A stretch of DNA of 64,000 nucleotides from Tubulanus polymorphus (GCF_964204645.1 NC_134032.1:7676275-7740274), one strand, 5' to 3'; shown: positions 10,323 through 52,570, numbered from the stretch's first letter. Made by a program: numbers and translations. Notes: generated from the sequence alone by a model not told the origin.

Positions 10323-10418
10323 AGTAATAGGGATAATGGGGGTTCAAGCCAAAGGTCGAAGGGTCGAGCTCACTCTCCCCTTCAACCTTTGACTTGAAAC
10401 CCCATTATCCCTATTACT
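10323..10418. repeat. Left terminal hairpin of the Polinton
   Basis: AGTAATAGGGATAATGGGG...CCCCATTATCCCTATTACT, imperfect palindrome of about 96 nt. Confidence 0.9.
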
Positions 10419-10722: not shown

Positions 10723-11382
10723 ATGAGTTTTAATGAAAGTTTTGTTATAAAAATGAAGACAGAAGAAGAACCCAACTTCAAAATCGAAATAAAAGAAACC
10801 AATAAATCATTTTCACAGTTTAACATTGGAAATTATATTTCAGCAACAAATTTAGTGCCCGCAAGGTATTATAAAATTGATAACATTACTATGATTAATC
10901 AAATATCATCAAATGAAACATATTTAATTACTGAATTAATTGATACTTTTGATAATGGAGTTAAAAATCCTAAAATATTTAATACAGTTTTCAATTTTTA
11001 AGGAACTTTAGATGAAAACATAATAAACATTCTTAAAACTCCTTTCAATGAAAGAAAAAGTGATATAATACTTTCTAAAGATTACAATGATTTGATTAAC
11101 TTAAGAATTGAAAAAAGACAATTATATTATTACAATTTTGATAATAAACAAATCATCTATAATGAAAATTCATCAAATATTGGCATTCAATGTGAATTAG
11201 ATAATGAAAAATCATATAAAGATGTTGCAGTTCAATGTAATTCAGATGATGAATTTAGAAAATTCAATCCTAATGAAAAAGTGTATTGTTATTGCGGTGG
11301 TAAATATCAAAAATCACATAAATCAAAACATTATCAAACAGTTAAACATATCAATTATGAAAAAATAATAAATATATATTGA
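10723..11382 (+). pseudogene. Polinton accessory gene with C-terminal CxC...HxxxxxH zinc finger, broken
   Basis: ORFs 10723-11001 and 11092-11382; YCYCGGKYQKSHKSKHYQTVKH; homologue at 37960-38383. Confidence 0.6.
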
Positions 11383-11554
11383 AATAAGATTAAGCTGTAT
11401 GTTTCAAATATATAGTAGTTAAAGCATTGAGAAATTAGTTAATGAATAACTGTTAGGTAGTAAGTTTAATTGTTATTTGATTTGAAACATATAAAAGTTA
11501 AATATTTCTAAAATATTAAATATTTATCAATTTAATAATTTTTTTCTGAAATAA

Positions 11555-11763
11555 ATGTATGATTTCAACATACCAACCGGAAGTAGTGATTTGAAGCATT
11601 ATTTAGTGCAGGAGGATTAATTTTGGCTGCATTATATTTTTACTATGAGAATATTTCTAAAGATTTGATGAATGATAATAATAAATTGAAGAAGTTAAAT
11701 GGAAACAATCACAGAAAAAATAACAATAAAAAAGTTAATTTAGAAAATGATTTAGAGGATTAA
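11555..11763 (+). pseudogene. Small Polinton membrane-protein gene, frameshifted
   Basis: ATG sits inside the 22-nt conserved motif at 11536-11557; hydrophobic GGLILAALYFYY segment in a shifted frame. Confidence 0.4.
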
Positions 11764-11801
11764 AACAGCATCGTTGAATTTCATATATTTTGACTATAAA
11801 A

Positions 11802-12807
11802 ATGAGTGAAAATAAGGTATTAGAAATATTGTGCTGTTTTCCCTTAGGTTAGGTCCTCGACAAGACTACAGACACGAACTCTGGTATAGACTTGATATAT
11901 AATATAGATTTTATTTGCAGTTTGGGTACTTATAGTACGTACAGTCATGCTCATTGAACTATGTTACAGAAAATCAGTCAACTACGCAAAGCAGTTACAA
12001 CTGTGTATAATACATGAACATATGATACATAAATCATAATACATACATCCTCAACATTCTCCGGACCAAAAAAATAGAAGTAACAAATGCTTTTAAATCA
12101 ATATTTAAAGAAGCTATTCCAGATAAGATACAATTCGATGAAGGTAAGGAATTCTATAACAAACATTTTAAAAAACTATTATCTGATAACGATGTAAAAT
12201 ATTTTTCAACACATTCAGATAAAAAAGCATCTATTATAGAAAGATTTAATAAAACATTGAAAACTAGAATGTGGAAATATTTTACTGATAATGAAACATA
12301 TAAATATATCGATGTATTAGATGATTTAGTGAAAGGTTATAATAATTCTAAACATAGTTCTATAAATATGAAACCTATACAAGCTAGAAAAGAAGATAAT
12401 TCAGAAATAGTATGGAATAATTTATATGGAGCATTTGTTACACATGATTTCGGTGAACCTAAATTTAAAATAGGACAACACGTTAGAAATCTAAATATAG
12501 AAAAACATTTTATAAATGTTATACCCCTAATTTTACAGAAGAAATATTCAAGATTAAAAAGATAATATTAACTAAACCTTTTGTTTATAAATTAGAAGAT
12601 CTAAAAGATGAAGAAATATTAGGTTATTTCTATGAACAAGAATTATCACTTGTACCAAATCCAGATGAAATAGAATACAAAATAGAAAAAGTATTGAAAA
12701 CAAAAACTCTTAAAGGAAAAAAGTATTCTTTGGTGAAATATAAAGGATATGATGATAAATTTAATGAATGGATTTCATCTAGTAAAATTAAAGGAATAAA
12801 TGAATAA
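11802..12807 (+). pseudogene. Polinton retroviral-like integrase (rve) with C-terminal chromodomain
   Basis: IQFDEGKEF, KASIIERFNKTLK, YNNSKHSSINMKP, KFKIGQHVR, GYFYEQEL and chromodomain YKIEKVL..LVKYKGYDDKFNEWI. N-terminal part replaced by an LTR; frameshift at about 12487. Confidence 0.93.
11830..12068 (-). mobile_element. LTR (BEL/Pao-like 3' LTR with polypurine-tract remnant) inside the integrase gene
   Basis: Minus strand reads TGGTCCGGAGAA then TGTTGAGG...CAGCACA (227 bp, TGT...ACA) with an internal AATAAA; composition differs from the Polinton. Confidence 0.6.
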
Positions 12808-13411
12808 AGATTTATTTTTATTTGAACCGCATAATATGTTAGTTACTGGAGTAACCAATTGTGGTAAAACACATTTCATATTAGATTTGTTAGAAACTAT
12901 TTATAAGAATCATTTTGATAATATAATATTATTCTGCCCTACTTATGAAATGAATAAAACATATAATAGAGATATAGTTAAGATAAAAAAGTTTATTATA
13001 TTAAATCCTAAAACAGTAAAAGAAAATTTAGATAACTGTATAAAAATAGCAATTGATACTTATAAAGGATCAAATACATTATTCATTGTGGATGATTGCG
13101 CAAATTTACATGATTCAAAAGTGAGAGAAAGTGAGTTATGTTATTTAGCTTTCTCTGGGAGACATTTTGGGATAACAACATGGGTTTAAAATCAAAAATA
13201 TAATTCAATTGTTAAAGACTTTAGGGAGAATATAAGATTTCTAGTTTTATTTTATAACAAAGATAAAAAATCTATGCAACAATCATTGGAAGAAAATCAA
13301 ATTATACCTACTGAATTACATGATGAATATATGAATAAATTAAAGAATAATAAAGGTTCAAAATTATTACTGAGATTACAATTTCCATATGAATATAAAT
13401 TTATAAAATAA
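12800..13411 (+). pseudogene. A32/FtsK-like genome packaging ATPase with a premature stop
   Basis: Walker A GVTNCGKT, Walker B LFIVDD, SGRHF motif; TAA at 13187-13189, then the frame continues (NQKYNSIVKDFREN) to 13411. Confidence 0.93.
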
Positions 13412-13424
13412 CTATTTATAATTT

Positions 13425-14050
13425 GGAATATTATAGAAACTAATTTATATATCTATATACTAGACGTACGAGTAAGAAAGTAAGATTCTTGCCAAGAAAG
13501 TAAGAAAGTAAGAATCTTGGTAAGAATTCTTACGTACGTCTAGTATATAATTATTATAAATTAGTTTTATAATAATTATTCTAAATTTAAATTATAAAAA
13601 TGAATAAATTATATGTTTTCTCTTAATAAAAATAAAAATAGATTATATTATAACTATTTCTATACTTAGATTAATAATTTTATTTTTTTAATTTTTATGA
13701 AAACTAAATTATATATCTATGTACTAGACGTACGAGTAAGAAAGTAAGATTCTTACCAAGAAAGTAAGATTCTTAGATTCTTACGTACGTCTAGTACATA
13801 GATATATAAATTATTAAATGAATTATATAAAAATGAATAAATTATATGTTTTCTCTTAATAATAATAAAACTAGATTATATTATAACTATTTCTATACTT
13901 AGATTAATAATTTTATGTTTTTAATTTTTATGAAAACTAAATTATATATCTATGTACTAGACGTACGAGTAAGAAAGTAAGATTTCTTGGATTCTTGGAT
14001 TCTTACTCGTACGTCTAGTATATAGTTATATGAATTAGTTTTATAATAAT
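13425..14050. repeat. Three tandem palindromic units between the convergent gene blocks
   Basis: TACTAGACGTACG...CGTACGTCTAGTA cores at about 13458-13545, 13722-13796 and 13955-14020 with variable AAGAAAGT/AAGATTCTT interiors. Confidence 0.92.
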
Positions 14051-15191
14051 TATTCTAATTTTGTTTCTAATATAATTATAAAATCATCTCTGTTTATATC
14101 TAATTCACCAAAAGTCTTAGGTAGATTTATTAATTTTAATTGAGCCATCTTAACATAATAATTAGTAGGAAAATTAGCTTTTTCTCTTAATTTTTCTAAG
14201 TATTCATCAAAATCATCAAAATCAAAATCAAAATGATGTCCAAAATTATTTATCAGATAACTTAAATCAATTTTTCTAAAATATAATAATTTATGTATTT
14301 GTTTAGGATTATCTTCTGCATAAGCTAATAATTTATCAAATAACAAGTTATAGAATATATAATATTGGTTAGTTTTAGGATTAAAATATTTGATAAATTT
14401 ATTTGGGTTATTTAACAATGGTATCATACTCACCATTTTATAAACATTAATTAGATGTAACTTTGATTTATAATGAGTATTTTCATCAACAGGTTCAATT
14501 TTCTTATTACAATATTGGCAAATTTTATTTCTTTCTATTTCTTCTAATTTCTTTTCATGTTCTTCTAACTTCCTTTCATTTTCGATATGCGCTTGAGATT
14601 TTTTATGTTTAGAAAAATTACTTTTAGAAATATCTAAATCACAAATGTTACAATGTTTTTAGAATCATCAATTGTTTCATTATAATTAGTTTCAATTGTA
14701 TCAACATTATCTGTTATATTATCTATGGTACCATTTGTTTCAATTGTATTAACATTATCTATGATATCATATATTATATTATTATCAGATATATTATTAT
14801 AATTATTCTTTTCTTTTTCTATATGTTTATTTGATTTCTTATGTGATGCCCAATTTTTATATGATATATATTTCTTACATACATCACAATATTTTTCATT
14901 TGTCTTTTTGGTTTTGATATCAGGTTCAATCTTATCATTATTAGATGTAGAAGGTATTACATTATTAGATGTAGAAGGTATTACATTATTAGATGTAGAA
15001 GGTATTACATTACTTAAATTATCAACAACACCACTTTTATTATTATCTATTTCTATTAGTTTAGTTTTATAAATTTTGAAAATAGGATCAAATATCAAAG
15101 CTATATTACAAGGTATTACATAATATAAACCATCATTATTTTCATGTGTATCGATGTATGGAATATGTTTATACACTTTACCTCCTTCCAT
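14050..15191 (-). pseudogene. Polinton multi-zinc-finger protein, frameshifted
   Basis: YCDVCKKYISYKNWASHKKSNKH, then CNICDLDISKSNFSKHKKSQAH and CQYCNKK...H...H in a shifted frame; internal 24-bp repeat (NNVIPSTS)x3 at about 14938-15012. Confidence 0.7.
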
Positions 15192-15236
15192 TTATTATAC
15201 AAATTTTTATTAAAGTTAAAATTTTAATACATAACT

Positions 15237-16467
15237 CCATTTAATTGAGAATTTACAATATTTAATTGCACGTCAGATATAATATAAATGTGCATTTTGA
15301 AATTTAGGCTTCTTTTTTCTTTGTCATGAATAATTGTATTCCATCTTTAGTGTTTTGTAATTTTTTTCCAGAACCATATAATGAATTATCCTCTGTTGTT
15401 CTAAAATCTAACCATAATGCATATTTATTACCGGTATAATAATCAATTTGATTAATATTACAATTTTCAGATGATTTTACTTTTTCATTCATAAAATGTT
15501 TTCTAATTTCTGGCCATTGATCAATCATTCTCATTCCTTGACAAAATATTTTATTTGCTATTCCTTCGATAGTTATTTCTACTTTTGTTATTTCAGAATT
15601 ATAATAATTATCAACATTTATTGCGCCATAAGTATATGTTGCAATGGTAAAAAATATTAATAGACCTTTAATAGATCTTCTTGGGAAGTTAATATTCTCA
15701 TTAATTATTTCATCATTTGCATTAATAGTTACAGTTTTAAATTTATCAATATAATCATATAATAATGAAAATCCTTAGTTGTATTTAGTTTGAATTATAC
15801 TTGAAATATTTTCATCAGTTACTGTATCATATTCTAAACATAGATTCGATAATCTATAACTCATATCTTTATTAACGCTAGATATTACAATTTCATTTAC
15901 AGGAGCAAAGGTTATTTCGAATATAACATCTTCTTGAATTGCGTATCTATATAAAGGTGCATTATTATTTATCAATTCAAAGTCTAATGGAATTTTATAT
16001 TTGCTTCCATATATACTTTTTATCAATTTATCTACAGCATTAGTTAATATTGCATTATGTGCTTCTGATCTTAATTTATTTTGGTTTTCTGATTGGATGC
16101 CTTAAAATATATTATTTCTATTTTCTTTAGTTAACCATAAATCTTTATAATGCATAAATAAATTATAATCATCTAATGAGAAAACTGTTTCTGGACCAAT
16201 CTTTATAGTTAATTTTTTAATCAAATATCTTCCAACATTATCAACAACATAATTATTATTATTACCGATTACTTTTATATCGGCTGATAAATAAATACTA
16301 TTTGGAACATAAAAAGTATTTTGTGTTAATCGAGGAATTCTAACATATAAAGTTTCATCGGGATTAATATTAGAAGGGTTATGAGTAATTATATGATGTG
16401 ATCTTTCTGCTTTAATAGCATTAGATATTCTATGATTCTTAGAAGGATTGATATAACTCCCACTCAT
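15237..16467 (-). pseudogene. Major capsid protein (double jelly-roll, hexon-like) with several nonsense codons
   Basis: ITHNPSNINPDETLYVRIP, VVDNVGRYLIKKL, LEYDTVTD, PRRSIKGLL, YALWLDFRTTEDNSLYGSG resemble invertebrate Polinton MCPs; stops at 16102, 15775 and near 15304. Confidence 0.85.
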
Positions 16468-16935
16468 TTATTTAACAAAAAAATTAATTATTTATTTTTT
16501 ATCATGTTTACTAACCCAAAAATAATAGCACTTACAACTGTAATTAAAAATAAAATAATATGTTCAGCAGCAAAGTTAATAATGTTTCCTGCAGATTTCA
16601 ATATAAAACCAACAATTGATGCAATAATTCCTGGTAAAGCTGCAGCAGATTTTTTAGATAGTTCCCATAAATATTTTGCTAATTTCTTTAAACCATCTTT
16701 AACTTTATCTTGTATAGAATTATTATCATTCGGGATCCGGTTCCACAGTTCTTGATTAAATCTGACTCAGAGTTAGTTTTTAACTCAGGGTCAGAAACGA
16801 ACTCTGAGTTAGCTGACTCCGAGTTAGTTTTGCGTTCCACAGTTCTCATTTAACTCAGAGTTTACTTACTCAGAGTCAAAGTCATATCTCCATAGTAACC
16901 ATCTTAATTCAGAGAAGTAATTGGTAATTCTCAAA

Positions 16936-17462
16936 ATGGCAACGTGCAGCAACGAAAAACAGCTTAAAAAAGAAGTCCTAACTTTACTAAAGACGAGATG
17001 GCCGTTCTCACTGTCGTTGTAATGAAAAATGGTGATGTGTTATTTTCAAAGTTGAATAACGATGTCACAAACAAGCTGAAAGCGAAGAAATGGGGAGAGG
17101 TGGCTAGTGCAGTAAACAGCCTAGGGCACTGTGTGAGAAAACCAGATGAACTTAAATTCAAATGGAAAAACATGAGCGCTAAAGCAAATTGTATGAATTC
17201 GGAAAGAAGGAAACTAGCACACAAAACTGGAGGGGGGCCACCACCGGAAAATTTGATAAAGAACGTCGACGAGACTATGGAGAAAATTATAAGCGCTAAC
17301 GAAAACAGAGAAGCTTGGGTCGGAATAGATGCAACACTCCACTTAGATCCTCCCATTATCATGTCACTAAGTCCAGAAAGTAATATATATCTTTATTCAC
17401 TGACAGGGTCAATCATTTTTGTTTTTAACTTTGCTTTCACCCAACAGCATATCGTCAAATGA
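16936..17462 (+). pseudogene. Harbinger Myb/SANT-like DNA-binding protein, N-terminal part
   Basis: KRSPNFTKDEMAVL...KWGEVASAVNS...ELKFKWKNM...TGGGPP; apparent frameshift near 16965. Confidence 0.82.
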
Positions 17463-18176
17463 TAGCTTGATGACGTGCTACACTTTGACCTTTGACACAC
17501 ATGCGCAATGGCGTCTAAATATCTCCCTGGAACCGAATCCAAGAAAATATAAGATTATAAAACTTACATGTTACGGCTTGGCAGTTACATCACAGACCCA
17601 GCGTTGCAAATTACTAATGCACATATAAATCCCATCATTCTGATAATCCAGTTGGTCTCGTGCTGCGATTATTTTCCGCACATTTCGGCTTAAAAACGAT
17701 AGTTTAGCAGACACCATGTGCAGAAAAAATGGCTCATGTCCGGCTAATTTATGCACCGTCATAGACGTGGACTCGTTAGGTTCGAATCCCAATTTTGAAC
17801 AACAGTCGGGAGCATTTTAAATTATGATGTATTGATTAATCAATCACTTTTTTCTGTTAAATTTAAGTATCAAAGATTGAGACGTCACCGTCGAACGCGA
17901 TTACTCTAATGGGGGATGACGGGACCGTATACGAAGTCACCGAATCATTTTTGCCATTACCGGCAACTGAAACCAACGTTTCTGAGATGCATGTTCAAGA
18001 TATAAGCACTTCCGATAATATTGGAACAATTCCCAATACCGGTACGTATAAATGGGTTTGCATTTGTTTCTGACAAATTACTTAGATGGTACACTGCATT
18101 GAAAAGAAAAAAAGTCACTACGCGCAGAACATTGCCAAATCGGACAGTATCCTGTTAATTTCCGGCCTTGAACTTA

Positions 18177-18721
18177 CCATCGGCATTACACACACCCTGT
18201 GCATTTATCGAATGAAAACTTTTTCGGTTCACAAAGTCTCTTTCAATTTCATTTCTTGAAGCTTGAATACGTATATGTGTTCCATCAACACAACCAATAA
18301 CACCGGGTAAATTTCCGACTTCATAAAAATCAGATTTCGTTTTTGCCAGTTCTGCTGGGCCTCTCGGAAACTTGATAAAATCTGCTTTCTTCGAGCAAAG
18401 TGCGTCGGTTACACGAGTAACAGATCTCGAAACTGTTGATTTCGATACACCAAAACTATCTCCGATTACCTCCAAAAATGAGCCACTGGCATAAAATCGA
18501 AGTGCCATAAGAACTTGCAGTTCGACAGTCAAAGGCAATCCACGATTGCACGTTTTTTCTGCCATCAATGGTCTACATATTTCAACGATTCTCTGCACAC
18601 CCGTTCTTGTAAAGCGATATCTATTATAGCATTCGACATCCGTGATTTCGAGTTGATTTGTAATCCTTCGATATTCTTTATTCTTGGCTTCTCTACCCGC
18701 TAATAAGTAGAATGCCGCCAT
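18177..18721 (-). pseudogene. Harbinger (HARBI1-like) transposase exon 1 only
   Basis: YRFTR, LQVLMALRFYASGSF, GVIGCVDGTHIRI, NRKSFHSINAQGVC then GTAAGT donor; no downstream exons found. Confidence 0.88.
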
Positions 18722-20399
18722 TTTAAACTCTGAGTTAAGCATTTTAATTCAGGTCTGACCCAGAGTTAGAATTTCACCCTGAGTTAAGGAATTTAACTCT
18801 AGAGTTAAATTTAACTCACCACTGTGGAACCGGATTTAACTCCGAGTTACTTTTAACTCTGAGTTAGGGAATTTAACTCTGAGTTAAAAGTTAATCAAGA
18901 ACTGTGGAACCGGGTCCTGGGGTTTATCTGGTTTATCGGGAGTAGGAGTAGATTTCAAAGCATTTGATATAGCTAAACCTATCGTTGTAAATACCATAGT
19001 TACAGATGTTAGAATTGAAAGAATTGTTATTCCTTCTAATTTAAATAATAATGTTATTCTATCTTTCAATGATATTTTTAGAATCTGGTTTTATCAACAA
19101 ATCTTTAACAACAACTTTTAATTTTTTAATATGATTTTTTAATATAATGTATCTCTTTCTTTTTCCTGTAATTCTTTGTTATATTTTAAATCATCTATTT
19201 CTTTTTCTAAAGCTAACTTTCTGCTTTCATAATCAGCTTCCTCTATTACTTGAAGATTTTTATTTAATTCTAATTGTTTTAATTCTTCATTTGCATTAGC
19301 TAATTCTTTTTCTAACATGGTTATTTTAGAAAATCTCATCTTAATATTAGCAATTTCACCAGCTGATATTTGTACACCTTTAATTTCTCTACGTGATTTT
19401 TCAGGAAATTGTTTTAATTCTTCATCAGTTAAATCAAGTAATCCTTTTTCTAGTAAAGATTGTATTTGATTTATTCCAGTTTCAGCACCAGATGTATCTG
19501 ATAAACTATTCATCTCTTCTTCTGAATCTCTTAATCTATCAATTTGTTTTTCTAATGTTAATTGTAATTGACTTGAATCATTATCAATTGGTTGAGTGTC
19601 TCTTCTCGATGTTTCTGGTGTTGAAGTTCTTAATTTATCTAATCGATTTGCAAAATATTCATCAGTTTCTGGATCAACATCAGTAGGATTTGGATTTGGA
19701 TTTTTAAATGGTGAATATTTGTTTATATCAATATTAGGAATTGGTTCTTCTTTATTTATTCTATCGAGTGCATTCCATATAATTCTGAGAAATTCTCTAC
19801 CACCTTTTGAACCTTCAATTGTAGATAATGCTCGCATTCCAGGTTCAAAAATATTTTCTTGACCCATTCTAGATAATTGAATTGTTACAATATTCCTATT
19901 TAATTCAAGATTTTAATACCATGAATCATTTTTAAATTCTAAATTATTCATGAAAAATGGGTCATCTTTTAAAATTTGTTCTACAACACCTTCTGAATCA
20001 ATTTCATCTATTACAACTTTTGGTAATAATTCGTTAACAATTGTATCTGTTACTCTAGATTTCATTCTATATAATTCCATAGGTTCATCAGGATATTTTT
20101 CTTGTTGTTTTTCTAATAGTTTCATAAATTCTTTTCTTTCTGTTCTAGTTGAAATTCTACCACTTACAGGAGCTTGTAAATATCTAATTAATTTTTCACG
20201 TAATTCGGAATTAATTCCATCATAATCATCATCATAATCATCATCTTCAACTAAATTAGTATTATATGCCGTTTTATCATCATTACTGAAACTCGTTTCA
20301 TCAAAATTAGGTGGTTGTTCATCACTTATACCGGGAGCGTCACCAAAAGTATCAATTCCAATATCTTCTCCACCTTCTGTCATTTACATAATAAAAAAA

Positions 20400-21723
20400 T
20401 TAAAATCTAAAATATAATATTCCTCCGATTACAATTCCTATACAAGTTAAAGCTAATTTAGTATTTTCATGGGATTTATTATCATCATTTAGTTTAATTA
20501 TTTCATGTTGAATATTATCAGTTCTAATATTTTCTGATGTATTGTAATCTTTTATTTTAGAATCATTATTTAATTTAATATTATTAGTTTTAGTTTCTGT
20601 TGATTGAATGTGTTATTTATTTCTTTCACCTTCCATTAATTTTGGAGCAGTAATAATCTTTTTATTTATATCATTCAATCCAAATGAATTATTTATTGTT
20701 GCAGTTTTAATTAGATTATTATAACCAATTATATTTCCCATCTTAATACTAAATCATTAGAAATAATTAATAGATTAGGGCTTATACAATAATTTAATCT
20801 AATATGAGATTTATCTAAATAATTTTGATATCTTACAATGTTTTCCGGAATCGATCTATTTTTATCATTATGAATTGAATCTTCAAATAATACTTTCAAT
20901 TGTTTCTGCGCATCGAATGAAGTGTTATCATTTCCAATTATTGGGGATCTTGTTTCAACTTGCGCACCTTAAATACATATCAAATAAGTTCTAATAGATT
21001 GATTTATTCTTTGTATACCAGCTTTAGTAAAACCTTCACCATTTTCTAAAATGAAATTAACCCAACCATTATTGTTTTGTTGTTGTATATTATTATAATA
21101 TTTTGGTAATTCATTCCAATTTAGTGTTCTTATATCTGAATTTGTCATTATTTTTCCAAATTCTTTAGTATATAATATTCCTAATCCACTCATTGTTCCA
21201 ATTTTTGCTCTAAAATCTTTATTTGAATTAATATTAAATTCATTACATATTTTATAAAACTTAGAAAAATTAATATTATTATTCAATTCTTTAAAATATT
21301 TTGAACCTGGTAAAGGACATTCTAATTCATCTAATATTAATTTTATTTGAAAATATGTATGAAATCTAAAAAGTGATAACATCAATGGTAAACTTGGCTT
21401 GTTTAAATGATCATTCCAACTAATTCCACATCCTGTCGTTGCACAATAAACAGCAAAATTTAATTGGTTCTGCCAATACTTCATATTAGATTTTAATAAC
21501 CATTGTTTTGCCTCATTTAAATTTTTGAAATTAATTGTATACACATGAAATATATTTCCATCTTTACATGAAAATTATTACTTTCAGTAACATAAATATA
21601 TAAATCAATTAATGAATCTAAAACTTCATTTCTATATGTAATATCTTTATTAAAATCTATTGCTGAAATATTATATTTAATTGATTTATTATATTGGAAA
21701 GCTTTTGGAAAACTATCTGCCAT
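20400..21723 (-). pseudogene. Conserved Polinton gene of unknown function with C-terminal TM helix
   Basis: WQNQLNFAVYCATTGCGIS, FRFHTYFQ, GFTKAGIQRINQSIRTY, ends HENTKLALTCIGIVIGGILYFRF; frameshifts and stops present. Confidence 0.7.
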
Positions 21724-21739
21724 TTATATAATTGAAAAA

Positions 21740-22174
21740 TTAATAATTAACTAATTCTTTTAATAATTTATCTTGTTCTTCAACTGTTATATGACCATTT
21801 AAACTTATTATATAATCTAGTGTATTCTTTAATTTATTAATTTCTTTTATATTAGTTTTAATTTTTTCTTTATCACTTTTTATATTCAATTTTGAACTTA
21901 TACCAGTTAAAACACTTGAACTTAATCCTAACACACCAATTGATATAGCTAAAGGTATTAATGGACTGAATATTGCTAGAAATGTTATTACAGAACTAAT
22001 TGTAACCGAACCACTTATAATCAAATAATATATAATTTTGCTTTTTAAATATTTTTTCTTTTTTATCTTTAAGTCACTTTCAAATTCTAATATTTGTTTT
22101 TCTAAAAATATTTTTAATTTAGTTTTATTTATATCATGAGGAATAATATCAATATTATCAACTTTATCTTCCAT
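21740..22174 (-). CDS. Polinton small two-TM membrane protein, 144 aa
   Basis: Intact ORF; basic patch followed by two hydrophobic segments; 22-nt motif at the start. Confidence 0.7.
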   Translation of the reverse strand: MEDKVDNIDIIPHDINKTKLKIFLEKQILEFESDLKIKKKKYLKSKIIYYLIISGSVTISSVITFLAIFSPLIPLAISIGVLGLSSSVLTGISSKLNIKSDKEKIKTNIKEINKLKNTLDYIISLNGHITVEEQDKLLKELVNY

Positions 22175-22193
22175 TTATTTAGCAAAAAAATTA

Positions 22194-22615
22194 CTAATTA
22201 GTAAACTTATATGCTACAAATATAACAATAACAGTTCCACCTAAAATCAAAATTATTTCATATTTCTTCTGTTCATTACTTGGGGTATAATAATCTGATA
22301 ATTTTGGTTTGTATAGATGTAATTTTTCTTTATTTGTTACCGCGTTATATAAACTCATTGCATCATCAACTGATTGCAAATCTCTGTGTGAAATCTTCTG
22401 ATCATATAATTCCTTGTTAATATAATCCATATAGTTTTGTCTCTTTTCTCTATATTCTTCAGCTGCTTTATTGTATTTCTCTAATGCTAAGTTATGTCTT
22501 TTTTGTTCTGTTAATGATCCATTTTATCAATATGCTTAAATAAATATCCGCCACCAGTAAATGCTAAAGCGTTAACAATTGCCGATCCTATAATAGTTAT
22601 AACTGCAGAAGCCAT
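22194..22615 (-). pseudogene. Polinton small membrane protein with N- and C-terminal hydrophobic segments, frameshifted
   Basis: MASAVITIIGSAIVNALAFTGGGYLF...EQKRHNLALEKY...ILILGGTVIVIFVAYKF; frameshift near 22520. Confidence 0.7.
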
Positions 22616-22639
22616 TTATTTAGTAAAATAATTATGCAT

Positions 22640-22861
22640 TTATATGGGAGGAATATATTTTTGTTTTTCTAAATAATCAATAGTTAAATTAGATAAAGTA
22701 ACTGCTAACGTTAATTTTAAAATATCATTTATATCAAATCTATCAACATTAACACTTCCCATTTTAAATACTTTTTTTAATACCATTGAATAACAAACAG
22801 TTCCAACTGATAGTAATGCTCCATTATATAATCCAGTTATTATCCACTTATTATCACTCAT
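22640..22861 (-). CDS. Polinton small hydrophobic protein, 73 aa
   Basis: Intact ORF with two hydrophobic helices, ending DYLEKQKYIPPI; 22-nt motif at the start. Confidence 0.7.
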   Translation of the reverse strand: MSDNKWIITGLYNGALLSVGTVCYSMVLKKVFKMGSVNVDRFDINDILKLTLAVTLSNLTIDYLEKQKYIPPI

Positions 22862-22965
22862 TTATTTATCAAAAAAATTACTATCTTCAAAATATTTAGT
22901 TAACTTATTTATGATTAAATCAACATTTATTTCATTACTAGTTTCATTTGTATATATTTCAATTA

Positions 22966-23217
22966 TTATTTTTTTAATATCATCGATGATAAAAATTCAT
23001 CTAATTCATAAAATCTTAAAGATTCTCTAATTAAATTAGTAATCTTTTCTACATTTAAAGTTTCTTTATCTATTGTTGTTTCATACTCAAATGTTGTTTC
23101 ATTAGAAAATGTAATAATTTTGATATGTGTAATTACATCATTAATGTTAAATTTCATTTCTTTCTCATGTTTAAAATCAAACCCAAAACATATACTCGGT
23201 CCAACAGTTATATTCAT
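22966..23217 (-). CDS. Polinton hypothetical protein, 83 aa
   Basis: ORF whose ATG lies in the 22-nt conserved motif. Confidence 0.55.
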   Translation of the reverse strand: MNITVGPSICFGFDFKHEKEMKFNINDVITHIKIITFSNETTFEYETTIDKETLNVEKITNLIRESLRFYELDEFLSSMILKK

Positions 23218-23233
23218 TTATATAATGAAAAAA

Positions 23234-23994
23234 TTACTCTTTACATCTTATAACTAATTCATAAATTACAGGAAAGTTATTCAAATCAATTAAATATCCA
23301 TTATGATTTCTTATTTCTAATTTAAAATTATTAAATTTAGGAATGCAAGGTTTAAAATCACATTCTGTTAAATTATAATTTATTTGAGTTCCAAATTGTT
23401 TAACATTTTTTAGCGGTAAAATATCTAGTATACTAGAACTAAAAATTAGTTTCTTTAGTTGCTTCGAAAGTTTTTGTAGGATCGATTAAATTGCAATAAA
23501 TATTAAAGTGTGTAAAAGGTATTATATTTGAATTACCATCTATGTTTCCTGTAACAGTATCTGGTGCAATTCCTAGCAATTTAGCCAATGGTTTTTTTTG
23601 CCATAAATGCATGTTGACTTTCATCATATACCTTTATTTTAATTTTATTTGTGCTATCGCTTTTTATAAATCTAATTAAAAATTTATCATCTCGTCGAAT
23701 TTTCAACCGTGCTCTTCGATTAATTTCTTGAGCTAATGTTTCTAAATTATATAATCCTGGTTTCAAAATTATATGAAACCATTTATCTACATTTCCAATA
23801 TGAATTAAAAAAGTATTATCTTCAATAGTTTTATCCGTTATATTATAAAAAGAATTACATAAACTTATATTAACTAATTTTAAATCTACACAATTCTTGA
23901 ATTCTCTATCTAATTGTACTAGTAAATTATGAGATTTATAATTAGTAAGTTTTCTTGAATCAACAAATATTCTGTATTCTTTTAATTCCGCCAT
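23234..23994 (-). pseudogene. Minor capsid (penton-like, single jelly-roll) protein, frameshifted
   Basis: IFVDSR, LVNISLCNSFYNI, LKPGLYNLETL, LAKLLGI, FNIYCNLI, C-terminal LEIRNHNGYLIDLNNFPVIYELVI are typical of Polinton/PLV minor capsid proteins. Confidence 0.78.
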
Positions 23995-24011
23995 TTATTT
24001 TACATATTTTC

Positions 24012-24364
24012 TTATTCGAAATCAATTTCATGGTGCCCCTTTTCATTCTTACCTTCGTATACGAAATAGAAATCTCCAGAACATAATTCTTCTAATCTTC
24101 ACTTGATAATCTATGAAATCTATCTGGTAAATATGTTCTGAATTTATGTGTATTTCCTTTTAATCCTTCATATTCTAAGTGTATAACTAATTTATCTCCA
24201 TAGTTATTAGTAACTGTATCAATATTTGTAATTAGATATTTCTTATGGATTGTTAATTCCGTTAACTTTTTGAATTTATAATCTATAGATTTTACATTTG
24301 TTATATCTTTTATTCTATCTAGAAATAATTTGTTGTTCTCACTGTGTGTTTGTTTACTCTCCAC
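24012..24364 (-). pseudogene. Small Polinton protein, possible OB-fold ssDNA-binding protein
   Basis: FKKLTELTIHKKYLIT...NYGDKLVIHL...YLPDRF; start codon reads GTG, TAG at 24092 then continues to 24012. The fold is an inference. Confidence 0.5.
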
Positions 24365-24393: not shown

Positions 24394-25023
24394 TTAACAC
24401 GTTAGAATTCTTTTCATTATCTCGTTCTCTTTTGTTTCTTCTCTTTTAAATTTTAAGTATTCATCTAAATTGCAACCATAAGCAACTGTATGAATTCCAT
24501 CATCTAAAATATATCTTTTATCATCAAATGGGTTTAGACTTATCTTTTCAATTTCTTCAATAAACATTTCATGATCTTCAGATCTTAAACATCTCATCTT
24601 GTTTTCTAACTTCTTCATTGAATATACAATTGATGTAATCTTTGAAATGAATATTCTTTTCTACTACATTTTTGGTTATTCCTTTTAACTTTTTAGCTTC
24701 ATGTTCTTTAGTTTTATATGAATACATTTTAGATCTAATACCTATGAACTCTATCATTTCTTCACCGCCTAATTCATCCTTAAACTTCCCTTGAACTTTT
24801 TTATTATCATTGCTAAACAATTCATGATCTTTAGGGTAGTTACTAAAATCAAAATGATGTTTTAATGTTTTTAAATCATCTGTTATGTTATCAGTTTTTA
24901 TCTTTAATATGTAACTGTCGGTATCAAAATATAATATTTCTATATGTTTTTTTCCAAAAAGTGGTTGTAATACATTATAATAGAATTCATACATTAGTAA
25001 TTTTGATAATTCTAAAACTGAAG
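24394..25023 (-). pseudogene. Family B DNA polymerase of Polinton type, C-terminal part only
   Basis: SVLELSKLLMY, LYFDTDS, FDFSNYP, GKFKDE, GIRSKMYS, KLKGI, SLNPFDDKRYILDDGIHTVAYG; frameshift near 24600; upstream part absent beyond the Harbinger junction. Confidence 0.94.
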
Positions 25024-27140
25024 CGCCCAGTTTCACGAAAAAGTTAAACTCAAAAAATTAGTGTAAACTATTAATCCAGTTTAAATATTCGGTGTAAAAT
25101 TTTCAGTCAGTTTCATGAAAAAGTGTAAAATAAAATTGGTGTAATTTTGGTGTAAATTTTAAACTACATCACAAATGAGGTTAAAATCCTTAAACCAGTT
25201 TAAGGTTGCTAATGAAGATATTAAGATGGCGGAAATACTTGGTAATTTAATGTTTCGGAGAAGATACCTTCGCAGGCCTCAAGTATTTCGGCGTTTGCCA
25301 AATTCCCCGATGGATTTATATAATGATGACGAATTTTCCAGTAGATTCAGATTCAGCAAGAACTCAGTTCGACAGATATGTGACATATTAAGGGATCAAC
25401 TTGAGCGTCCTACCAATCGCTCAAAAAGCCTTTCGGTGGAGCACCAAGTGATTATAACGCTCCGATATCTAGCCACTGGATCGTTTATGTCAACGGTAGT
25501 AGACACAATCGGTGTTTCGAAAGCGACTGTTTCTCGAGTCGCATATTCAGTATGTTGTGCGCTCGTTAGTGTAAAAGATAGGTTCATTGTTTGGCCTAAC
25601 TCGGAAGTAGAAATCAGTGCGACCAAGCAGGGTATCTATGAATTAGGCCGGTTCCCAAATGCTATTGGATTGATTGATGGAACTCACATTAGAATCATCC
25701 GGCCATCAGTTGACGAGCCGGCTTTTATCAACAGGAAACGATATCCTAGCATAAACGTTCAGGCTGTCTGTGACCACACAGGTAAAGAATCATAAAGATA
25801 GTACGTTTTATGCAGTAGGCCTAGTTATCAAGATAAGATCAACAAGATATTAGTTTCATTTCAATTCTATTTTTCATTGGTCATTCAAGGGGCCGGAAAC
25901 TTTTGTGCTTTATAAAATGTTCGCTATAAATATTCTTTAAAGGAAAATTCACTAATGTTGTTGCGAAATGGCCTGGGTCTGTCCATGATTCCCATATCTT
26001 CAGAACTTCAGCTCTTGGTAGGTAAGTACAAGACTCCAGTCAGTCCATGTAGATCAATCATCTCGAATTCACTTCATCCAGGTTGATTAGATGTGGTATT
26101 TGATAGTTTTGAATGTATTATATATATATCAAGGAAAATATTTACAATTCTATTAAAATATGGTTGAATCTTATTTTCAAGACAATTATTGTGGTAGCTT
26201 GCGCGCGCCGCAATGAGCTGTTTTTGCAGTACCGTACTCTACTCGGTTAATTGACGCAACTCTCCGGTAGTTTTCAATTCTGCTGTCATAACATCACACA
26301 TTTTGTTACACTATAGACACCTAGAGGCTACACATCGAGGCTTAACTGATGGCGTTTTACTGGGAGATTCCGGATATGCGTTGAAGCCATACTTAATGAC
26401 TCCATTTCTTCAACCTGTTGGAGATTCTCAAATACGGTAAATAGAAAATATATTTGAATTTATCTCCGCTTTTATTTCCCTTGTACTATTATTTCTGAGG
26501 AATTAGTTTTTCTTGCAGATATAATATCTCACACAAGAGAACTCGTTCAGGAGTGGAGCGATCGTTCGGAAGATTGAAAGGACGTTTTGCAATCCTGCAC
26601 GGAGAGGTACGCTTAGCACCGGAGAAAGCGTGTACTATTATCATGGCTTGCTTCGTATTGCATAACATGGCAATTCTGTTTAATGAACCAGAAATTGGAG
26701 AGATTGGAGTGGACGACGACCCTGGGGAGGTCCACGCTGAAGAACCTCAAACAGGAAAGCTAATGCGCGACTATTTTGTGAACACCTTCTTTGCGTAACC
26801 TTTCTATTCGCAAAAAATGAAAAAGATAACATGTTAACAATAAATTGAGTAAAATTTGAATTGCAATAGAATTATTCGAAATTTTCTATCAAATCGTGGA
26901 GCACTATTCTTCTTGATTTTTCATTTCAATTGTAACACCCGTCGAATTTTGCAAAGCAAAAATTTCTAGTTGTAGCTTTGCGTTTTTTAGTATGAAGTTC
27001 TCTTTCTCCAACTTCAGACAATCGACCCTAAGCTGCAACCGTTCACAGTCCAATTTAATGCGTTTTCGATCCTCAAAAAGATTTTTGTACTGCGCTGCGG
27101 TGATGTCTGCAGAGGATATCTTGGCTGCGGGTTTCAAGGA
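25024..27140. mobile_element. Second PIF/Harbinger transposon abutting PolB; right end not found
   Basis: Left end GCCCAGTTTCACGAAAAAG with GTGTAAA subterminal repeats; transposase (+) and the 3' coiled-coil exon of the partner gene (26904-27137, -) converge. Confidence 0.85.
25226..26798 (+). CDS. Harbinger (HARBI1-like) DDE transposase, four exons, apparently intact, 344 aa
   Basis: Exons 25226-25781, 25943-26021, 26317-26436, 26519-26798 with GT-AG introns that keep frame; [36 protein letters not shown]. Confidence 0.88.
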
Positions 27141-32288: not shown

Positions 32289-35200
32289 ATGGGACTTCGC
32301 TGTGTCGCTTATGGGTGCAGTCATGGCAGTGCTGACAAAGCAAGTACATTCTACTGGCCAAGTGATGATAAGACGAGGGCCATGTGGACGAAATTTGTAT
32401 GCCAGAAGCGTTTAAACTGGACAGGGCCGACCCGGTATTCGGTCTTATGTCGGTATCATTTTGAAGAAACAGCTTGTGCAAATAAGATGATGTTTGACGC
32501 AAATTTCGCGAAAAAGTAAGCTTCATAATAAAACCCTTGAAATATAAATGAATAAATCCAGCCCATATGACTGGAACCTCCTGATTTAGGTGTATAGTAT
32601 AGGATTTGGATGATACTGAAGATTTATTATTATGATGAGATGGTCCCCGGACAACCTGGCCTGTAAAAAGCTACAATAGCGCTTTCATCATATGCAGGCA
32701 TCGTACTACAAAAAGGGACCATTTCACAATATTAAATCTATGAATTACTGAGTGAAAAGTATCTTTATCTTATAATAATAGACTACTCCATTTATTGAAA
32801 ACAAGATTAAACATAGCTGTCCTAAAAGGTCATAGGTAGCACAGGCCACAAATCAAAATGAATATCAAAATGCAACATATAATATCATTATGAGAGCTTT
32901 GCCAAATGAACTGATTTCTGAAGAAAATGTTTTATTTATTCAGTTTACTGCTAAAGTCAGGAGCTGTACCAACAATTCATATGCCGGTACAGCCAAGTCA
33001 ATTAAACTCAGCTGACGAAATGCTTTTTTCACCCCCCAGACCAAAGGGCAGGGCTGCATATGAAAAAAGAGAAAGAAAAAGAATATTTAACAATGTGGCG
33101 AACCCTCAAAAAGCCTCAGCTGTAATTCCCGATGATGAAGCTTCGTTTCAAGACCCGGACTGCCTAGTTGAGTCCAACATTGCCGCCAAATCTAAAGAAA
33201 TTGGCATACAAAGTGCACCAGATTGTGTGTCGAAAGGTGAGTATCTTTTTCAGTAGTGCCTTTTTCATTGTTGATACTGGTTTTTCACAGAGCAAAAGTT
33301 TAATTATTGATCTTTTGATAAATTCAGCTATTCAGACGCTTAAGACACCAGCAAAACCGAAAGTAGTAGTAACGTACAAAACAAAACCTGTTTATGTATT
33401 CAAAAAAGTACGCCAAACCTCACGGGGGGTTCAGATAACTCCTGCAACAAAAAGTAAGCACTGCATTTAGGAAATATTTTCAATATAATCAATGATTGAC
33501 TAATTTCTTATCAGATTTGATCACAATCCTATATCAATACTTATAATGAAAAAGTAAAAAAACTTCATTTAGGCCTATAGACTATTTTAAAGTTTTCAAC
33601 CATGCATTTCAGCGATTGCCACAGGGGTAAATATGAAGAGGAAAGGTCGGCCCCTTGGAAGCAGCAGGAAGACCTTTGTTGTTGATAGCAGTTCGTCTGA
33701 GGATAATGATTCTGATGATGAATACATTCCATCTGAATCTGACTCGGGTAGTGATAATAACTATGATTCTGATGAAGAAAATATTATTTTTGATGAAATG
33801 AGGTAACTTTTTTATGAGTATGTCTCAGGTAATGCTTATTGCTGATGATTACTAGTGCCACCCTACAACGATCTATCTATCCAATTTTCAGAGATGACAG
33901 CCAGCTAGATTATGGGAAACAAGCTAAAGTAATCGTTTTCGAGCATAAACTATTTGAACTTTTCCGTCATTGTAATTCTTGCGGTGGTTATAACAAGATA
34001 GAGAAAAGAACCAAAGGCACATTACTAGTTGTTCAAACAACATGCCAGTTGTGCTGGAAACAGAGTAGTTGGCAGAACCAGGATTTCATTGCAGGGAAAC
34101 AAGTTTTGAATATTTTGATAAGTGCGATGATCTTGCTTACTGAAACTGGCCAACAAAATCTATACGGTTGTTCGAGTAAGTCACCAGAGATGTGAACTTC
34201 TGATATTGTTAAATATTCAAAATTGTGTCCTAAATTCATTTAGGCCTAATATCCTCTGTTTCGATAGTTGAAAATTGATAGTGGGAACATAATTTTTTTC
34301 CAGGTTGCTAAATATTGCCATTCATTCAACGAGATCGTTTTTCCGCTATTAACGAAATTTCTTTCATGGAGCAATTAACCGGGTTTGGGAAGTCAGCAGA
34401 AAAACAATTTTGGATGGTTTAAATGGTGAGCGATTACTCGGTGGTGATGGGAGATGCGACTCCATGGGACACTAAGCCAAATTTGGGAGTTACTCCATCA
34501 TGGACATCGAGGCGAAGAAAGTTGTTTCACTGCAACTAGTGCAGGTAGATATACTGACGTAAAAGTTTTCAGATTGAAGTTGTGAGTTAAAATCTATTTT
34601 TTTAATAGCCATTGATTAAAAATGCCATATTGTGCAATTCCTTTCTAGTCAACTGAAGTTAAAAACTCAAATGCCATGGAGTTGGAGGGCCTAAAACGCT
34701 GCACAACAGAATTAGGGAATATACCGGTAAAGGCATTTATATCAGATATGCATTTGCACATTGGAAAATGGATAAGGACAGTATGGAAAGTTAGTCACTA
34801 TTATGACTGCTGGCACGTTGTCAAAAGTAAGTTAAAAAAATCTTTGCATAAATGTCTGTATAAATTACAAATGCAAAAATACAAATTTGACTCAAATCTA
34901 TGATTTTCAAAACTATTTGATTGAATTGATAGATCAGTTTCGAAAATTGCGCATAGAATTGAGTCAAAATGTCAAATACCCTCTTAGTTTTTCTTCACAT
35001 TTTGGGTCTTTCAGCAATCACTTTTTATATCGTTGGATAGCTTGAAAAATCTAATAATCTATAATTTCAGGTATAACAAAAAAGTTAGAGAAATTAGCGA
35101 AGACCAAAGCCTTTGTGGACATTCAAGACTGGGTGAAATCATTAAAATATCATCTATACTGGTGTGTTTCGTCTTCCCCGAAAGACGATAAGGAATCAAT

Positions 35201-37960: not shown

Positions 37961-38530
37961 GAACTTATAGATACTTTAGATAATGGCGTCAAAAATCCTA
38001 AAGTATCTAATACAGTTTTTATATTATAAAGGTAATTTAGATGAAAACAAAATAAATATTCTTTAAACTCCTTTTATGAAAGAAATGATGATTTGATACC
38101 TTCTAAAGATTACAATGATATGATAGAGTTAAGAATTGCGAACAACGACAATTATATTATTTTAATTTTGATAATAAACAAATTATCAGTAATGAAAATT
38201 CATCAAATATTGGAATGTGATTTAAATAATGAATTTAAAAAGTTAAATCCTAATGAGAAAGTGTATTGTTATTGTGGCGGCATATATTTAAGATCACACA
38301 GATCAAAGCATTATAAGATAATTAAACATATCAATTATGGAAAGAATTATAATTCTATATTGAAAAGAGATTCATATATATGATATTCATATAAATAAAG
38401 TTCATTTATGTTAATATTATTAGAGTAATAGGGTATATGTCTTTTCATATCAGAGGTTGAGAGGGGCGAGTGAGTGAAAATGAGCTCGACCTCTCGACCT
38501 CTGGTATGAAAGGACACTTACCCTATTACT
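37961..38530. mobile_element. Terminal fragment of a related Polinton (zinc-finger gene remnant plus hairpin terminus ending ACT)
   Basis: ELIDTLDNGVKNPK and YCYCGGIYLRSHRSKHY are homologous to 10723-11382; hairpin 38424-38530; reverse complement of 38375-38530 aligns with 10323-10468. Confidence 0.85.
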
Positions 38531-47398: not shown

Positions 47399-47810
47399 AG
47401 AATTAAGGCGTTTAGAGGAGAATCCAACTGATGAAAGAAAATTTGCTCTACACAACTTTCAGTCATTGGATTTTGTGGATCGGTTTTAAAACAGTATACT
47501 TCGTGTAATTTACCCGAATCATGTGTCGATGAATTCTTGGATTAAACGCGTATGTCTTTAACGTATGTCTAGGGTTCTAAGGCCCGATTTTTTACTGCGG
47601 CGCCCGAGTTAACTCGTTTTTATGCACCCGTTCAGTGGCGACTCCTGTTTTTGGGAAACGGTACCACGGAACTATTATTTGTTCACGAATGCAACTAACA
47701 GGCTTCCATACTGCATTCTAATGTTGATTTCGAATCGATTTTGTTATTGTACGGGTAGGTAGAGGCGCTGAATGTACAGTGCTTATCTATGGGTGAGTTT
47801 CAAAACAAAG

Positions 47811-51255: not shown

Positions 51256-52570
51256 TAGTCCAGGCTCCAAGACTCAAAAATTGGAATTTCGCTTACCTGG
51301 AATACCTCAAAGCCCAAATTTCCATTGAAGAAAGATAAGATTCTCAAGCTTATTTGGGCAGATTTGTAACCCTGGAAACATGAGCCGGGCCGAGATATTG
51401 CGTTGCTAAGGTAACGTGCTGGTAAAATATATGCTGTAAGGAGGGTTTTTTAAACGGTGGATTATTCAAAAAGTATTGTAGATAAATTGAAAATTCTTAG
51501 ACCTACCTATATATTATTGGGTATGGCCTATCCGATAAAAGCAACAATGAACAGTTTCAACAATGCTATCATGCCGAAATTTTACTTTTTATTCAAAATA
51601 ACTTCATTTTCGCAGTAAGAAGCCCAAATAAGTTGTCAGTGCAGCCCAGTATGATAAAATATTTTACAAATTTATACATGTCATGTTAGCACGGGTCAAT
51701 GGCTATCTGGTAGTAACAACATTTTGGGATACTTCCAACTGTCGCCATGGTGACGGGATGCTTAGGGAAAACCATGAATTTTCATATAGTCATAGCTGGT
51801 TAAATGTTTTATTGAATTAATTAGAATTACCTCGTCTAAAAAATGGAATTGGGATATTTTTACAACATACCTGCTGACATGTTATCTGGACAACAATCTT
51901 AAAGCAATTTTACAAGGGTGTTACTATGGCAACGGTGCACTTTTTTGTATTTTACTGCAATTTGGGGGTTGAATTCTTTTCTAAGGACTTTTTTTTACAT
52001 AAAATTTACAATATCAGTCAGTAATTGAATAAAGTGATTTAAGACCCTCTAAATTAATTTTTCGAATAATTAGTTATCATTAGTTATGGAGCCAGTTACG
52101 ATAGAAACAACAGCCAATAAGTAATTGTTGATGATACCAAACATTCTTTTCTCATTTAAAGTCATTCCATCATATGTTAATGAAATAACTTGATAATTTG
52201 AAAATGCAATGGCTGATCATACTAATACTGACACTTTTTATATTGGTAATGCTGTAACCATGGGATATCAGATTCTATTGTTATTTGAAAATGAAAAATG
52301 AGAGTTGAAAATACAGTTGTAGCACCAACAGATCCGTCTACCATAGTCATTTTTGAGACAAGGGAATTGAAACTGGAATTTGCGATGTTTGTGAATTGAC
52401 GCTATAGGGGTAAGTTGATGCATTTTAGTCTGATTTTAGTTGACTTGTGGCCTAAGGTACTTACAGCGAGTTGAATGGAGGGGCCCATAGGCCTATGGCA
52501 GGCCCTACGCTATTCCCAACTTGTAATTTCATTTCATTGAAACAGCTGCGTCTCACGGTAAACATTATAG

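Follow-up and report, generated by a model that had tools for sequence, protein, structure and literature searches.

The 64-kb stretch of DNA analysed here (NC_134032.1:7676275-7740274, referred to as the window) carries a decayed polinton-like element, spanning 10323 to about 25050, in which gene starts are headed by a signal composed of a T-run, a 6-nt spacer and TAAATG, the ATG of which is the start codon. Analysis of its spacing and distribution indicates that this signal is very probably a promoter with the transcription start inside TAAAT, and among the relatives of the element it was found to be clade-wide and nearly element-wide, not virion-specific. It is considered moderately likely that a helper large DNA virus supplies the RNA polymerase that reads the signal in the cytoplasm, in which case the element would be an endogenous virophage of an animal. 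As for the helper type, a pox-like virus is a tentative suggestion, an iridovirus-like virus is rather doubtful, and another large DNA virus is improbable.

The TAAATG signal and its distribution

TAAT-N12-TAAATG was matched at eight sites, which are all of its occurrences in the window: one on the plus strand, at 11536-11557, and seven on the minus strand, with the first T at 16486, 20402, 21742, 22193, 22634, 22880 and 23236. All eight 22-mers named in the original prediction, which had proposed a poxvirus-late-promoter-like motif on eight virion-module genes, were recovered on these strands; the positions that it gave as 20383, 21723, 22174, 22615, 22861 and 23217 correspond to the A of the ATG and not to the motif start. 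When the native part of the element (12.5 kb, 23% GC) was shuffled 300 times each at k = 2, 3, 4 and 6, the mean number of sites was 0.52-0.77, with a maximum of five, against the eight observed. A scan of gap lengths from 4 to 24 in the native element peaked at N12 only, and with a free pattern (any 4-mer, a gap of 4-24, then TAAATG) none of 300 6-let shuffles reached eight (maximum 7). TAAATG by itself was not enriched there (33 against 26-27 in shuffles), and the signal therefore resides in the spacing.

Seven of the eight motif ATGs start homologues of family genes; the open reading frame (ORF) at 11555 is broken, and a search for its homologue found none. The leading TAA, which had been described as kept even where it is not the upstream stop codon, is independent at three of the eight sites (11536, 16486, 22634), and to this extent the description holds; it is the upstream stop at three others (20402, 21742, 23236) and directly follows a TAG at the remaining two (22193, 22880), and in the relatives it is only moderately kept. 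AATAAA lies within five of the eight window motifs, and TATA adjoins TAAATG in two. The assignment to eight virion-module genes was too broad, as the gene for the major capsid protein (MCP) is the only one of the eight shown as a virion gene, while the packaging ATPase and a penton-like gene of the window carry a second, A-core version of the motif. It was also too narrow, as in relatives the motif heads genes for the ATPase, a deoxynucleoside kinase and zinc-finger proteins, together with two integrase starts.

Relatives were collected by a search with an alignment of 56 MCPs, from which the best 80 of 112 metagenome loci and two contigs from genome bins were taken. In these, 499 ORFs were called and 339 were counted, namely those with an in-frame stop upstream, 40 nt of sequence ahead of them and a match to another locus at the N-terminus; 11 antisense families were excluded. 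In clade A, consisting of 11 close relatives with a GC content of 20-44%, 35 of 40 gene starts are TAAATG (17/19 in subgroup A1 and 18/21 in A2), whereas TAA-ATG starts amount to 0/22 in sister group B, 2/55 in other AT-rich relatives and 1/222 in GC-rich ones, with L110 and L082 counted as "others" even though trees put them near A and B. Among these relatives the motif is restricted to one clade. Internal ATGs of clade-A genes are preceded by TAA at 32 of 778 positions. Quick trees, built from the 44 of 80 loci with MCP matches of at least 250 aa and from 40 ATPase sequences, placed clade A and the window together on one side of a branch (MCP, 10 rows, SH-aLRT 97; ATPase, 5 rows, 89).

Within clade A, TAAATG was found at 9/11 MCP, 4/4 ATPase, 3/3 penton-like and 2/5 integrase starts, the misses being mostly internal fragments, and in locus L040 it is present at 15 of 17 ORF starts, including that of the deoxynucleoside kinase. 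The motif is kept across MCPs that are 52-56% identical, across the whole GC range of the clade and in rearranged gene orders. The Kozak context has a purine at -3, and T is a poor base there; a purine occupies this position in 47 of 55 starts of the other AT-rich relatives, and clade A has T.

Seven divergent gene pairs, separated by gaps of 19, 24, 28, 28, 30, 64 and 72 nt, have TAAATG at 13 of their 14 starts. No co-directional gene precedes a divergent start, which rules out stop-start packing and the poly(A) signal of a preceding gene as the main cause of the motif; the earlier statement that packing does not explain it was borne out. A trans-splice acceptor was likewise rejected, there being no AG ahead of the ATG. 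A gap of 19-30 nt would be too small for two RNA polymerase II (Pol II) TATA boxes with their 5' untranslated regions (UTRs) outside coding DNA.

Among the 59 TAAATG starts analysed (48 from relatives and 11 from the window), 34 have a T-core, 19 an A-core and six another core, and a count of 19 A-cores was never reached in 2000 column shuffles (0/2000). In the 28-nt divergent gaps, the same tract is the T-core for one gene and the A-core for the other; A-cores also stand ahead of co-directional genes (window 12800, 15191 and 23994).

Comparison with the promoters of large DNA viruses

The vaccinia/mpox late promoter is described as a T-rich core, 5-7 nt and TAAATG (PMC5294985, PMC11980589, PMC11423596), and the vaccinia late pattern is given as T-N9-TAAATG (PMC11423596). 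The latter fits 8/8 sites in the window, 45/59 in clade A, 34/93 internal TAAATG and 89/182 in iridovirus-like genomes; a stricter vaccinia group I pattern fits 1/8, 17/59, 1/93 and 20/182, respectively. Clade A thus fits the vaccinia patterns better than the iridovirus-like genomes do. The promoter-like behaviour originally proposed is apparent in the T at -3, in the use of both sides of the 19-30-nt divergent gaps and in the complete fit of the window sites. With the vaccinia late promoter, the signal, whose promoter function is predicted, shares TAAATG over the start codon, the 6-nt spacer, the T at the 10th base and a compact bidirectional use; unlike it, the signal is located on a polinton-like element, heads nearly all of the genes and has a far more uniform core. 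The vaccinia intermediate promoter, TAAAAA-N14-TAAA (PMC11423596), is resembled by the second class of starts, which have a TAAAAA or A-rich core, then T and a TAAA initiator, but not in its spacing.

The signal is not confined to poxviruses: in iridovirus-like genomes (79 IMG/VR loci picked by MCP alone) TAAATG is present at 183 of 718 starts (25%). It was also found at 14/40 and 13/30 starts in the IMG/VR bins G004 and G005, whose MCPs match that of the iridovirus SGIV at E 1e-116 or better, and at 5/18 in a third bin, G003; these bins were reached via a motif match. Iridovirus-like gene starts are similar to those of clade A in having ATAAATG, A at -4 (86% against 81% in clade A) and an AT-rich upstream zone, and their TAAATG starts reach 10/13 in L254. 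They differ in that T forms no sharp peak (about 50% T from -16 to -6; profile r 0.42) and in that AAAATG is as common as TAAATG. No strong excess of TTTTT-N6-TAAATG was detected in G004, G005 and G003 (13, 5 and 6 against 6, 5 and 6 for the reversed pattern), and no mapped promoter data for iridovirus-like genomes were found in the literature. As a separate observation, in the iridovirus-like IMG/VR loci L142/L254, L169, L258 and L273, TAAATG is present at 54-80% of the starts, with compact divergent CATTTA...TAAATG gaps; TAAATG could be a late initiator not yet described for these viruses. Marine invertebrates are reported to contain iridovirus-like particles, and transcripts of IIV-6 end at hairpins (PMC5923455); the hairpins located after the ATPase gene of the element are a lead only to an iridovirus link, since they also occur outside clade A.

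The late motif of Megamimivirinae ([AT]8 T[AC]T N4 [AT]5 [AG]TA[TG]A, with at most one mismatch) was rejected as a candidate because it was not enriched: the numbers observed and expected from five shuffles each were 8 and 10.8 in the window, 19 and 23.6 in L040, 7 and 8 in L041, and 16 and 9.4 in L042, the last being the sole excess. The late promoter of African swine fever virus (ASFV), with a TATA initiator, an upstream T-rich element and a short variable 5' UTR (PMC7163114, PMC5294985), is fitted better by sister group B than by the window.

Transcription machinery and alternative explanations

Pfam was searched with 32 pieces of the window and with 62 ORFs from related loci. Apart from VLTF3-like matches, which were found outside clade A alone, no match to an RNA polymerase, capping enzyme, TBP or VLTF was obtained in any of them. 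These comprise a gene in L057 (388-933, minus strand; PF04947, E 5.5e-8, over the Pfam cut-off) and one in L059 (6543-7049, plus strand), which falls below the cut-off (E 6e-4) and is characterised by Atlas features of 0.89 and a cyclin-like fold (TM 0.53). A profile of six VLTF3-like proteins detected nothing in the window element or the clade-A loci, the best match (E 0.14) being outside the element.

AATAAA is undepleted in A1 ORFs (135 observed against 137 expected in 23.8 kb, or 5.7 per kb), and Pol II transcripts of these genes would therefore carry several poly(A) signals each; depletion was seen in group B (10 against 19 expected) and in the L057/L120/L121 group (5 against 11), the last two being small counts. 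Judged from sequence composition, the A1 level would fit cytoplasmic expression of clade A. Group B has a motif of its own (TTCT, 8-10 nt, TATAG), and in L059 (49% GC) 11 of 12 starts have TATA within the 30 nt ahead of them (background 7%). No per-gene motif was seen by eye in the GC-rich clades, where, among the loci listed, TTGAA/TTAAA...TTCAA tracts occupy the divergent gaps. In L050, L062, L065, L070, L077, L086 and other GC-rich loci, the genes after the MCP gene are packed or overlapping, and inverted TTGAA...TTCAA tracts are located in the 30-50-nt gaps between divergent genes; this hints at another transcription mode within the same family.

In the mechanism that we propose, the signal would be a post-replicative promoter for most genes of a clade of polinton-like viruses (PLVs), and the helper would be a co-infecting large DNA virus, the RNA polymerase of which reads it. 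By analogy with vaccinia, transcription would start in the AAA of TAAAT, giving mRNA without a templated 5' UTR, and slippage would add an A leader replacing the poor T at -3. T-core and A-core starts could represent two timing classes, with one tract being read from both sides in divergent pairs. The element would presumably reach the cytoplasmic factory of the helper after excision or co-infection.

A number of observations weigh against this helper-based explanation. The two relatives with VLTF3-like genes indicate that the family can bring its own factor, the clade-A loci are incomplete, with the start of the protein-primed polymerase (pPolB) gene outside the available sequence, and several conserved clade-A genes are without assigned function. 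The integrase has to work in the nucleus, and its starts follow the signal least: in relatives the signal is present at two of five ORF starts, among them one internal fragment, and the start in the window is TATAAAAATG. The AATAAA test has no clean nuclear control, and other AT-rich relatives are also undepleted (104 against 105). The best-kept T is the 9th base upstream (53/59), not the 10th (45/59), and in 10 of 14 occurrences the TAAAAA of the A-core is separated from TAAATG by 9-11 nt, in none by the 14 nt of vaccinia; the pox side of these comparisons consists of published patterns and not of a pox genome compared directly. TAAATG starts are, moreover, common in several large-virus groups, and the match therefore names no helper. 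Finally, in family copies from a run of raw DNA reads with the same species label as the window (X5, 12% of the run used), three of the 40 variable sites listed fall inside the three motifs covered and none in TAAATG, which counts in favour of the explanation, but a further 28 variable sites stand outside those listed.

The signal could also be read in the nucleus by host Pol II together with a VLTF3-, TBP- or TFIIB-like factor of the element or family, in which case the element would be autonomous and its pox likeness would be due to shared ancestry of the factor or to convergence; this is possible, although on the unlikely side. It is opposed by the empty VLTF3 profile search in the window element and clade A, including L040 with its 16 genes, by gaps of 19-30 nt, which are too short to accommodate a TATA at about -25 to -30 together with a 5' UTR without using coding sequence, by the unfavourable base at -3, and by AATAAA remaining undepleted in A1, in contrast to its depletion in group B and the L057 group. 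Its support comes from the VLTF3-like genes of L057 and L059, from the joint occurrence of gene-by-gene promoters and such a gene in the sister group (L059), from the integrase and the tens of nuclear copies, and from the PLV isolate TSV, which is described as replicating in the nucleus (10.64898/2026.06.19.733378). That the ancestor was helper-dependent and the present family is only a transposon, in which translation or packing constraints have kept the signal, appears distinctly improbable: the decay of the window copy and the multicopy state of the family agree with such a relic, but retention of the motif across diverged MCPs, GC contents and gene orders needs ongoing selection, and in L040-L042 the genes are mostly intact, that for the capsid included.

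The least probable explanation, to which we give very little weight, dispenses with a promoter and ascribes the motif to stop-start packing, an upstream poly(A) signal, a terminator T-run or a trans-splice pyrimidine tract in AT-rich DNA. The AATAAA within five window motifs and the three leading TAAs that are upstream stops agree with this, as do a T-run placed after a stop, given that ASFV terminates at T-runs (PMC7163114), and the depletion of TTTTTNT in clade-A ORFs (observed/expected 0.42 and 0.40); a T-run doubling as a terminator is possible. However, A-runs are depleted as well (0.59-0.88), the divergent starts carry the motif in all cases but one while equally AT-rich relatives have it at 2/55, no AG acceptor precedes the ATG, and the spacing is tied to the ATG that follows and not to the stop codon that precedes. 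Depletion of TTTTTNT was not counted as a pox link either, since A-runs and non-pox controls show depletion too.

The element, its copies and its significance

The element contains a chromodomain rve integrase, an A32 ATPase, a capsid protein, a probable penton-like gene, the C-terminal part of pPolB and some eight genes without assigned function, plus nested Harbinger-type transposons. Its features are as follows.

10323..10418: left element end, beginning with AGT; 96-nt imperfect palindrome (folding z -11.9)
10753..11382, plus: broken terminal gene with a C-terminal Cys/His cluster; start TATAAAAATG, not TAAATG
11536..11557, plus: T-core motif 1, ahead of a small broken ORF
11802..12807, plus: broken rve integrase with chromodomain; start context TATAAAAATG
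12781..12802, plus: A-core variant ending in TAAATG ahead of the ATPase; overlaps the integrase end
12800..13411, plus: A32-like packaging ATPase with one in-frame stop (PF04665, E 4e-9)
13415..14052: three diverged repeats, containing long hairpins, at the junction of convergent genes beyond the ATPase (folding z -13.2)
14050..15191, minus: broken gene with C2H2-like motifs; A-core TAAATG start at 15189-15212
15227..16467, minus: broken double-jelly-roll MCP gene
16465..16486, minus: T-core motif 2 (MCP)
16488..20383, minus: broken conserved gene, about 485 aa in L040, with hydrophobic segments at the C-terminus, interrupted by a nested transposon
16733..18917: nested Harbinger-type transposon (Myb/SANT and DDE_Tnp_4), foreign to the element
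20381..20402, minus: T-core motif 3
20400..21723, minus: broken conserved gene, 442 aa in L040 (2996-4324), with a W..QLNFA motif
21721..21742, minus: T-core motif 4
21740..22174, minus: intact 144-aa ORF with a weak SLATT-like two-transmembrane match, below cut-off
22172..22193, minus: T-core motif 5
22194..22615, minus: broken conserved gene for a small hydrophobic protein
22613..22634, minus: T-core motif 6
22640..22861, minus: intact conserved gene for a 73-aa hydrophobic protein
22859..22880, minus: T-core motif 7
22966..23217, minus: 83-aa ORF, N-terminus common to L040
23215..23236, minus: T-core motif 8
23234..23994, minus: broken gene, probably penton-like (weak DUF5901 match); A-core TAAATG start at 23992-24014
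24394..25048, minus: C-terminal part of pPolB (match to the L050 pPolB; PF03175, E 2e-15)

The Polinton/Maverick hallmarks are therefore present as pPolB (C-terminal part only), rve integrase, A32-like ATPase and double-jelly-roll MCP. An adenovirus-type cysteine protease gave no Pfam match among the scanned ORFs of the window and relatives, and the 442-aa protein, which is represented in the family by 31 ORFs from 28 loci and has Cys/His residues that never vary, gave no match for its predicted fold (pLDDT 75; Foldseek best E 1.4, VIA best Z 4.2). The MCP of a natural relative, P0122 (73% identical), is predicted to fold as a double jelly roll (pLDDT 90), with large-virus MCPs as the best matches (SGIV, E 2e-16, and PBCV-1); those of mavirus (E 3e-11, TM 0.51) and Sputnik (E 1.5e-10) rank under them, and adintovirus/adomavirus entries are at ranks 26-34 in the BFVD fold search, all of these being fold ranks only. 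The terminal gene and the integrase both have a TATAAAAATG start after a short T-run, as is also seen in AT-rich relatives outside clade A, possibly representing a third start class. Long hairpins directly after the ATPase gene were also found in L040 (9119-9340), L041 (3757-3822), L042 (3183-3255), L053 and L064, the last two outside clade A; their position is kept and their sequence is not, and they are candidates for a terminator, an origin or an insertion hotspot.

A second, diverged element end, 73% alike to the left one, is located at 38424-38530, next to a second copy of the terminal gene at 37961-38397. Both ends are imperfect palindromes of 96-107 nt, running from AGT to ACT, each folding into a single hairpin (z about -11), and such ends are odd for an element with a protein-primed polymerase. 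The right end of the element was searched for and not found, and the ends at 10323 and 38530 share no flanking duplication. In X5, 963 reads have loose, varied sequence ahead of 10323, and 633 carry the outer half alone of the terminal palindrome. Read depth over most genes of the element was 400-970, compared with about 12 in the single flank bin, from which it follows that the family has tens of copies or more; they are mostly 90-99% alike, and many are without the nested transposon.

The flanks hold genes for an LRR-type G-protein-coupled receptor (GPCR), an Srw-type GPCR and THAP, and point to an invertebrate animal host, Srw receptors being taken here as an invertebrate marker; of the "marine invertebrate" in the original prediction, they support the invertebrate part only. 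Other mobile DNA around the element includes a second Harbinger-type insertion (25050-27100), a THAP-bearing element (32289-34900) and a piggyBac-like transposase (47772-49694). A 2069-nt perfect inverted repeat (51990-54058 and 56135-58203), with more inverted arms around it, may be a recent inversion, a foldback element or an assembly artefact.

Searches of IMG/VR by ATPase, MCP fragment and MCP alignment gave no relative of the element, and an exact-motif scan gave 39 single matches with no cluster, two of which led to the iridovirus-like bins described above. The deoxynucleoside kinase of L040 (10340-10981, minus strand), which has a T-core TAAATG start, is of a gene type common in large DNA viruses; it has three unnamed homologues and one 37% match in IMG/VR, and no donor was found. 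The family MCPs P0167 and P0198-P0205 and loci L120 and L121 are filed under bacterial names in public sets; these MCPs are probably contamination from animal or environmental DNA.

Virophages and PLVs with helper promoters, such as mavirus with the TCTA motif of CroV, resemble the element, in whose scanned ORFs no RNA polymerase was found, in being small double-jelly-roll viruses that share a large-virus motif, and mavirus also has pPolB and rve integrase; unlike the element, they are protist systems, whereas here the host is an animal, the motif is different and no protease was detected in the scanned ORFs. Promoters matching those of the helper have been described in mavirus, Sputnik/zamilon and Gezel-14T, with giant-virus late motifs at 9 of 20 zamilon genes (PMC11464507) and the PgV early motif in Gezel-14T (10.1101/2022.07.28.501842). 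Among animal elements, PLVs occur in entomopoxvirus occlusion bodies, and parasitism of a large DNA virus has been proposed for them (Barth et al. 2024, PMC11296320); compared by description only, they encode a cysteine protease, and the words "promoter", "motif", "transcription" and "TAAAT" are absent from the available main text. The Polinton-3_NV-like elements and the octocoral, hydrozoan and bivalve PLVs whose ATPases are placed near Aquintoviricetes (10.64898/2026.06.19.733378) have, by description, pPolB, an integrase and a large-virus-like capsid fold. Animal PLVs outside the Maverick groups have been noted (10.64898/2026.06.19.733378, 10.64898/2026.10.13.758929, PMC8502044), and "promoter" is absent from the available text of PMC8502044. 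A literature search, which did not extend to subscription papers and bioRxiv supplements, brought up no description of a TAAATG promoter from any animal polinton or PLV.

Animal polintons and PLVs may be autonomous viruses of the nucleus or may parasitise large DNA viruses, and helper-matched promoters have so far been shown in protist systems. The signal described here is a testable element of 30 nt, which predicts the transcript starts, non-templated A leaders and the appearance of the late promoter of the helper. The change of promoter architecture between sister clades with one gene set points to switches in who transcribes the elements. In a bolder version, offered as speculation, clade A would be an endogenous virophage of an undiscovered pox-like virus, copying both of its post-replicative promoter classes, and the sister clades would have switched promoter type together with the transcription partner, the types being TAAATG, TTCT..TATAG with VLTF3, and shared divergent promoters in the GC-rich clades. 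If this is true, the multicopy integrated form could provide an animal with an antiviral defence that is inducible, and the missing helper could be searched for by means of the motif.

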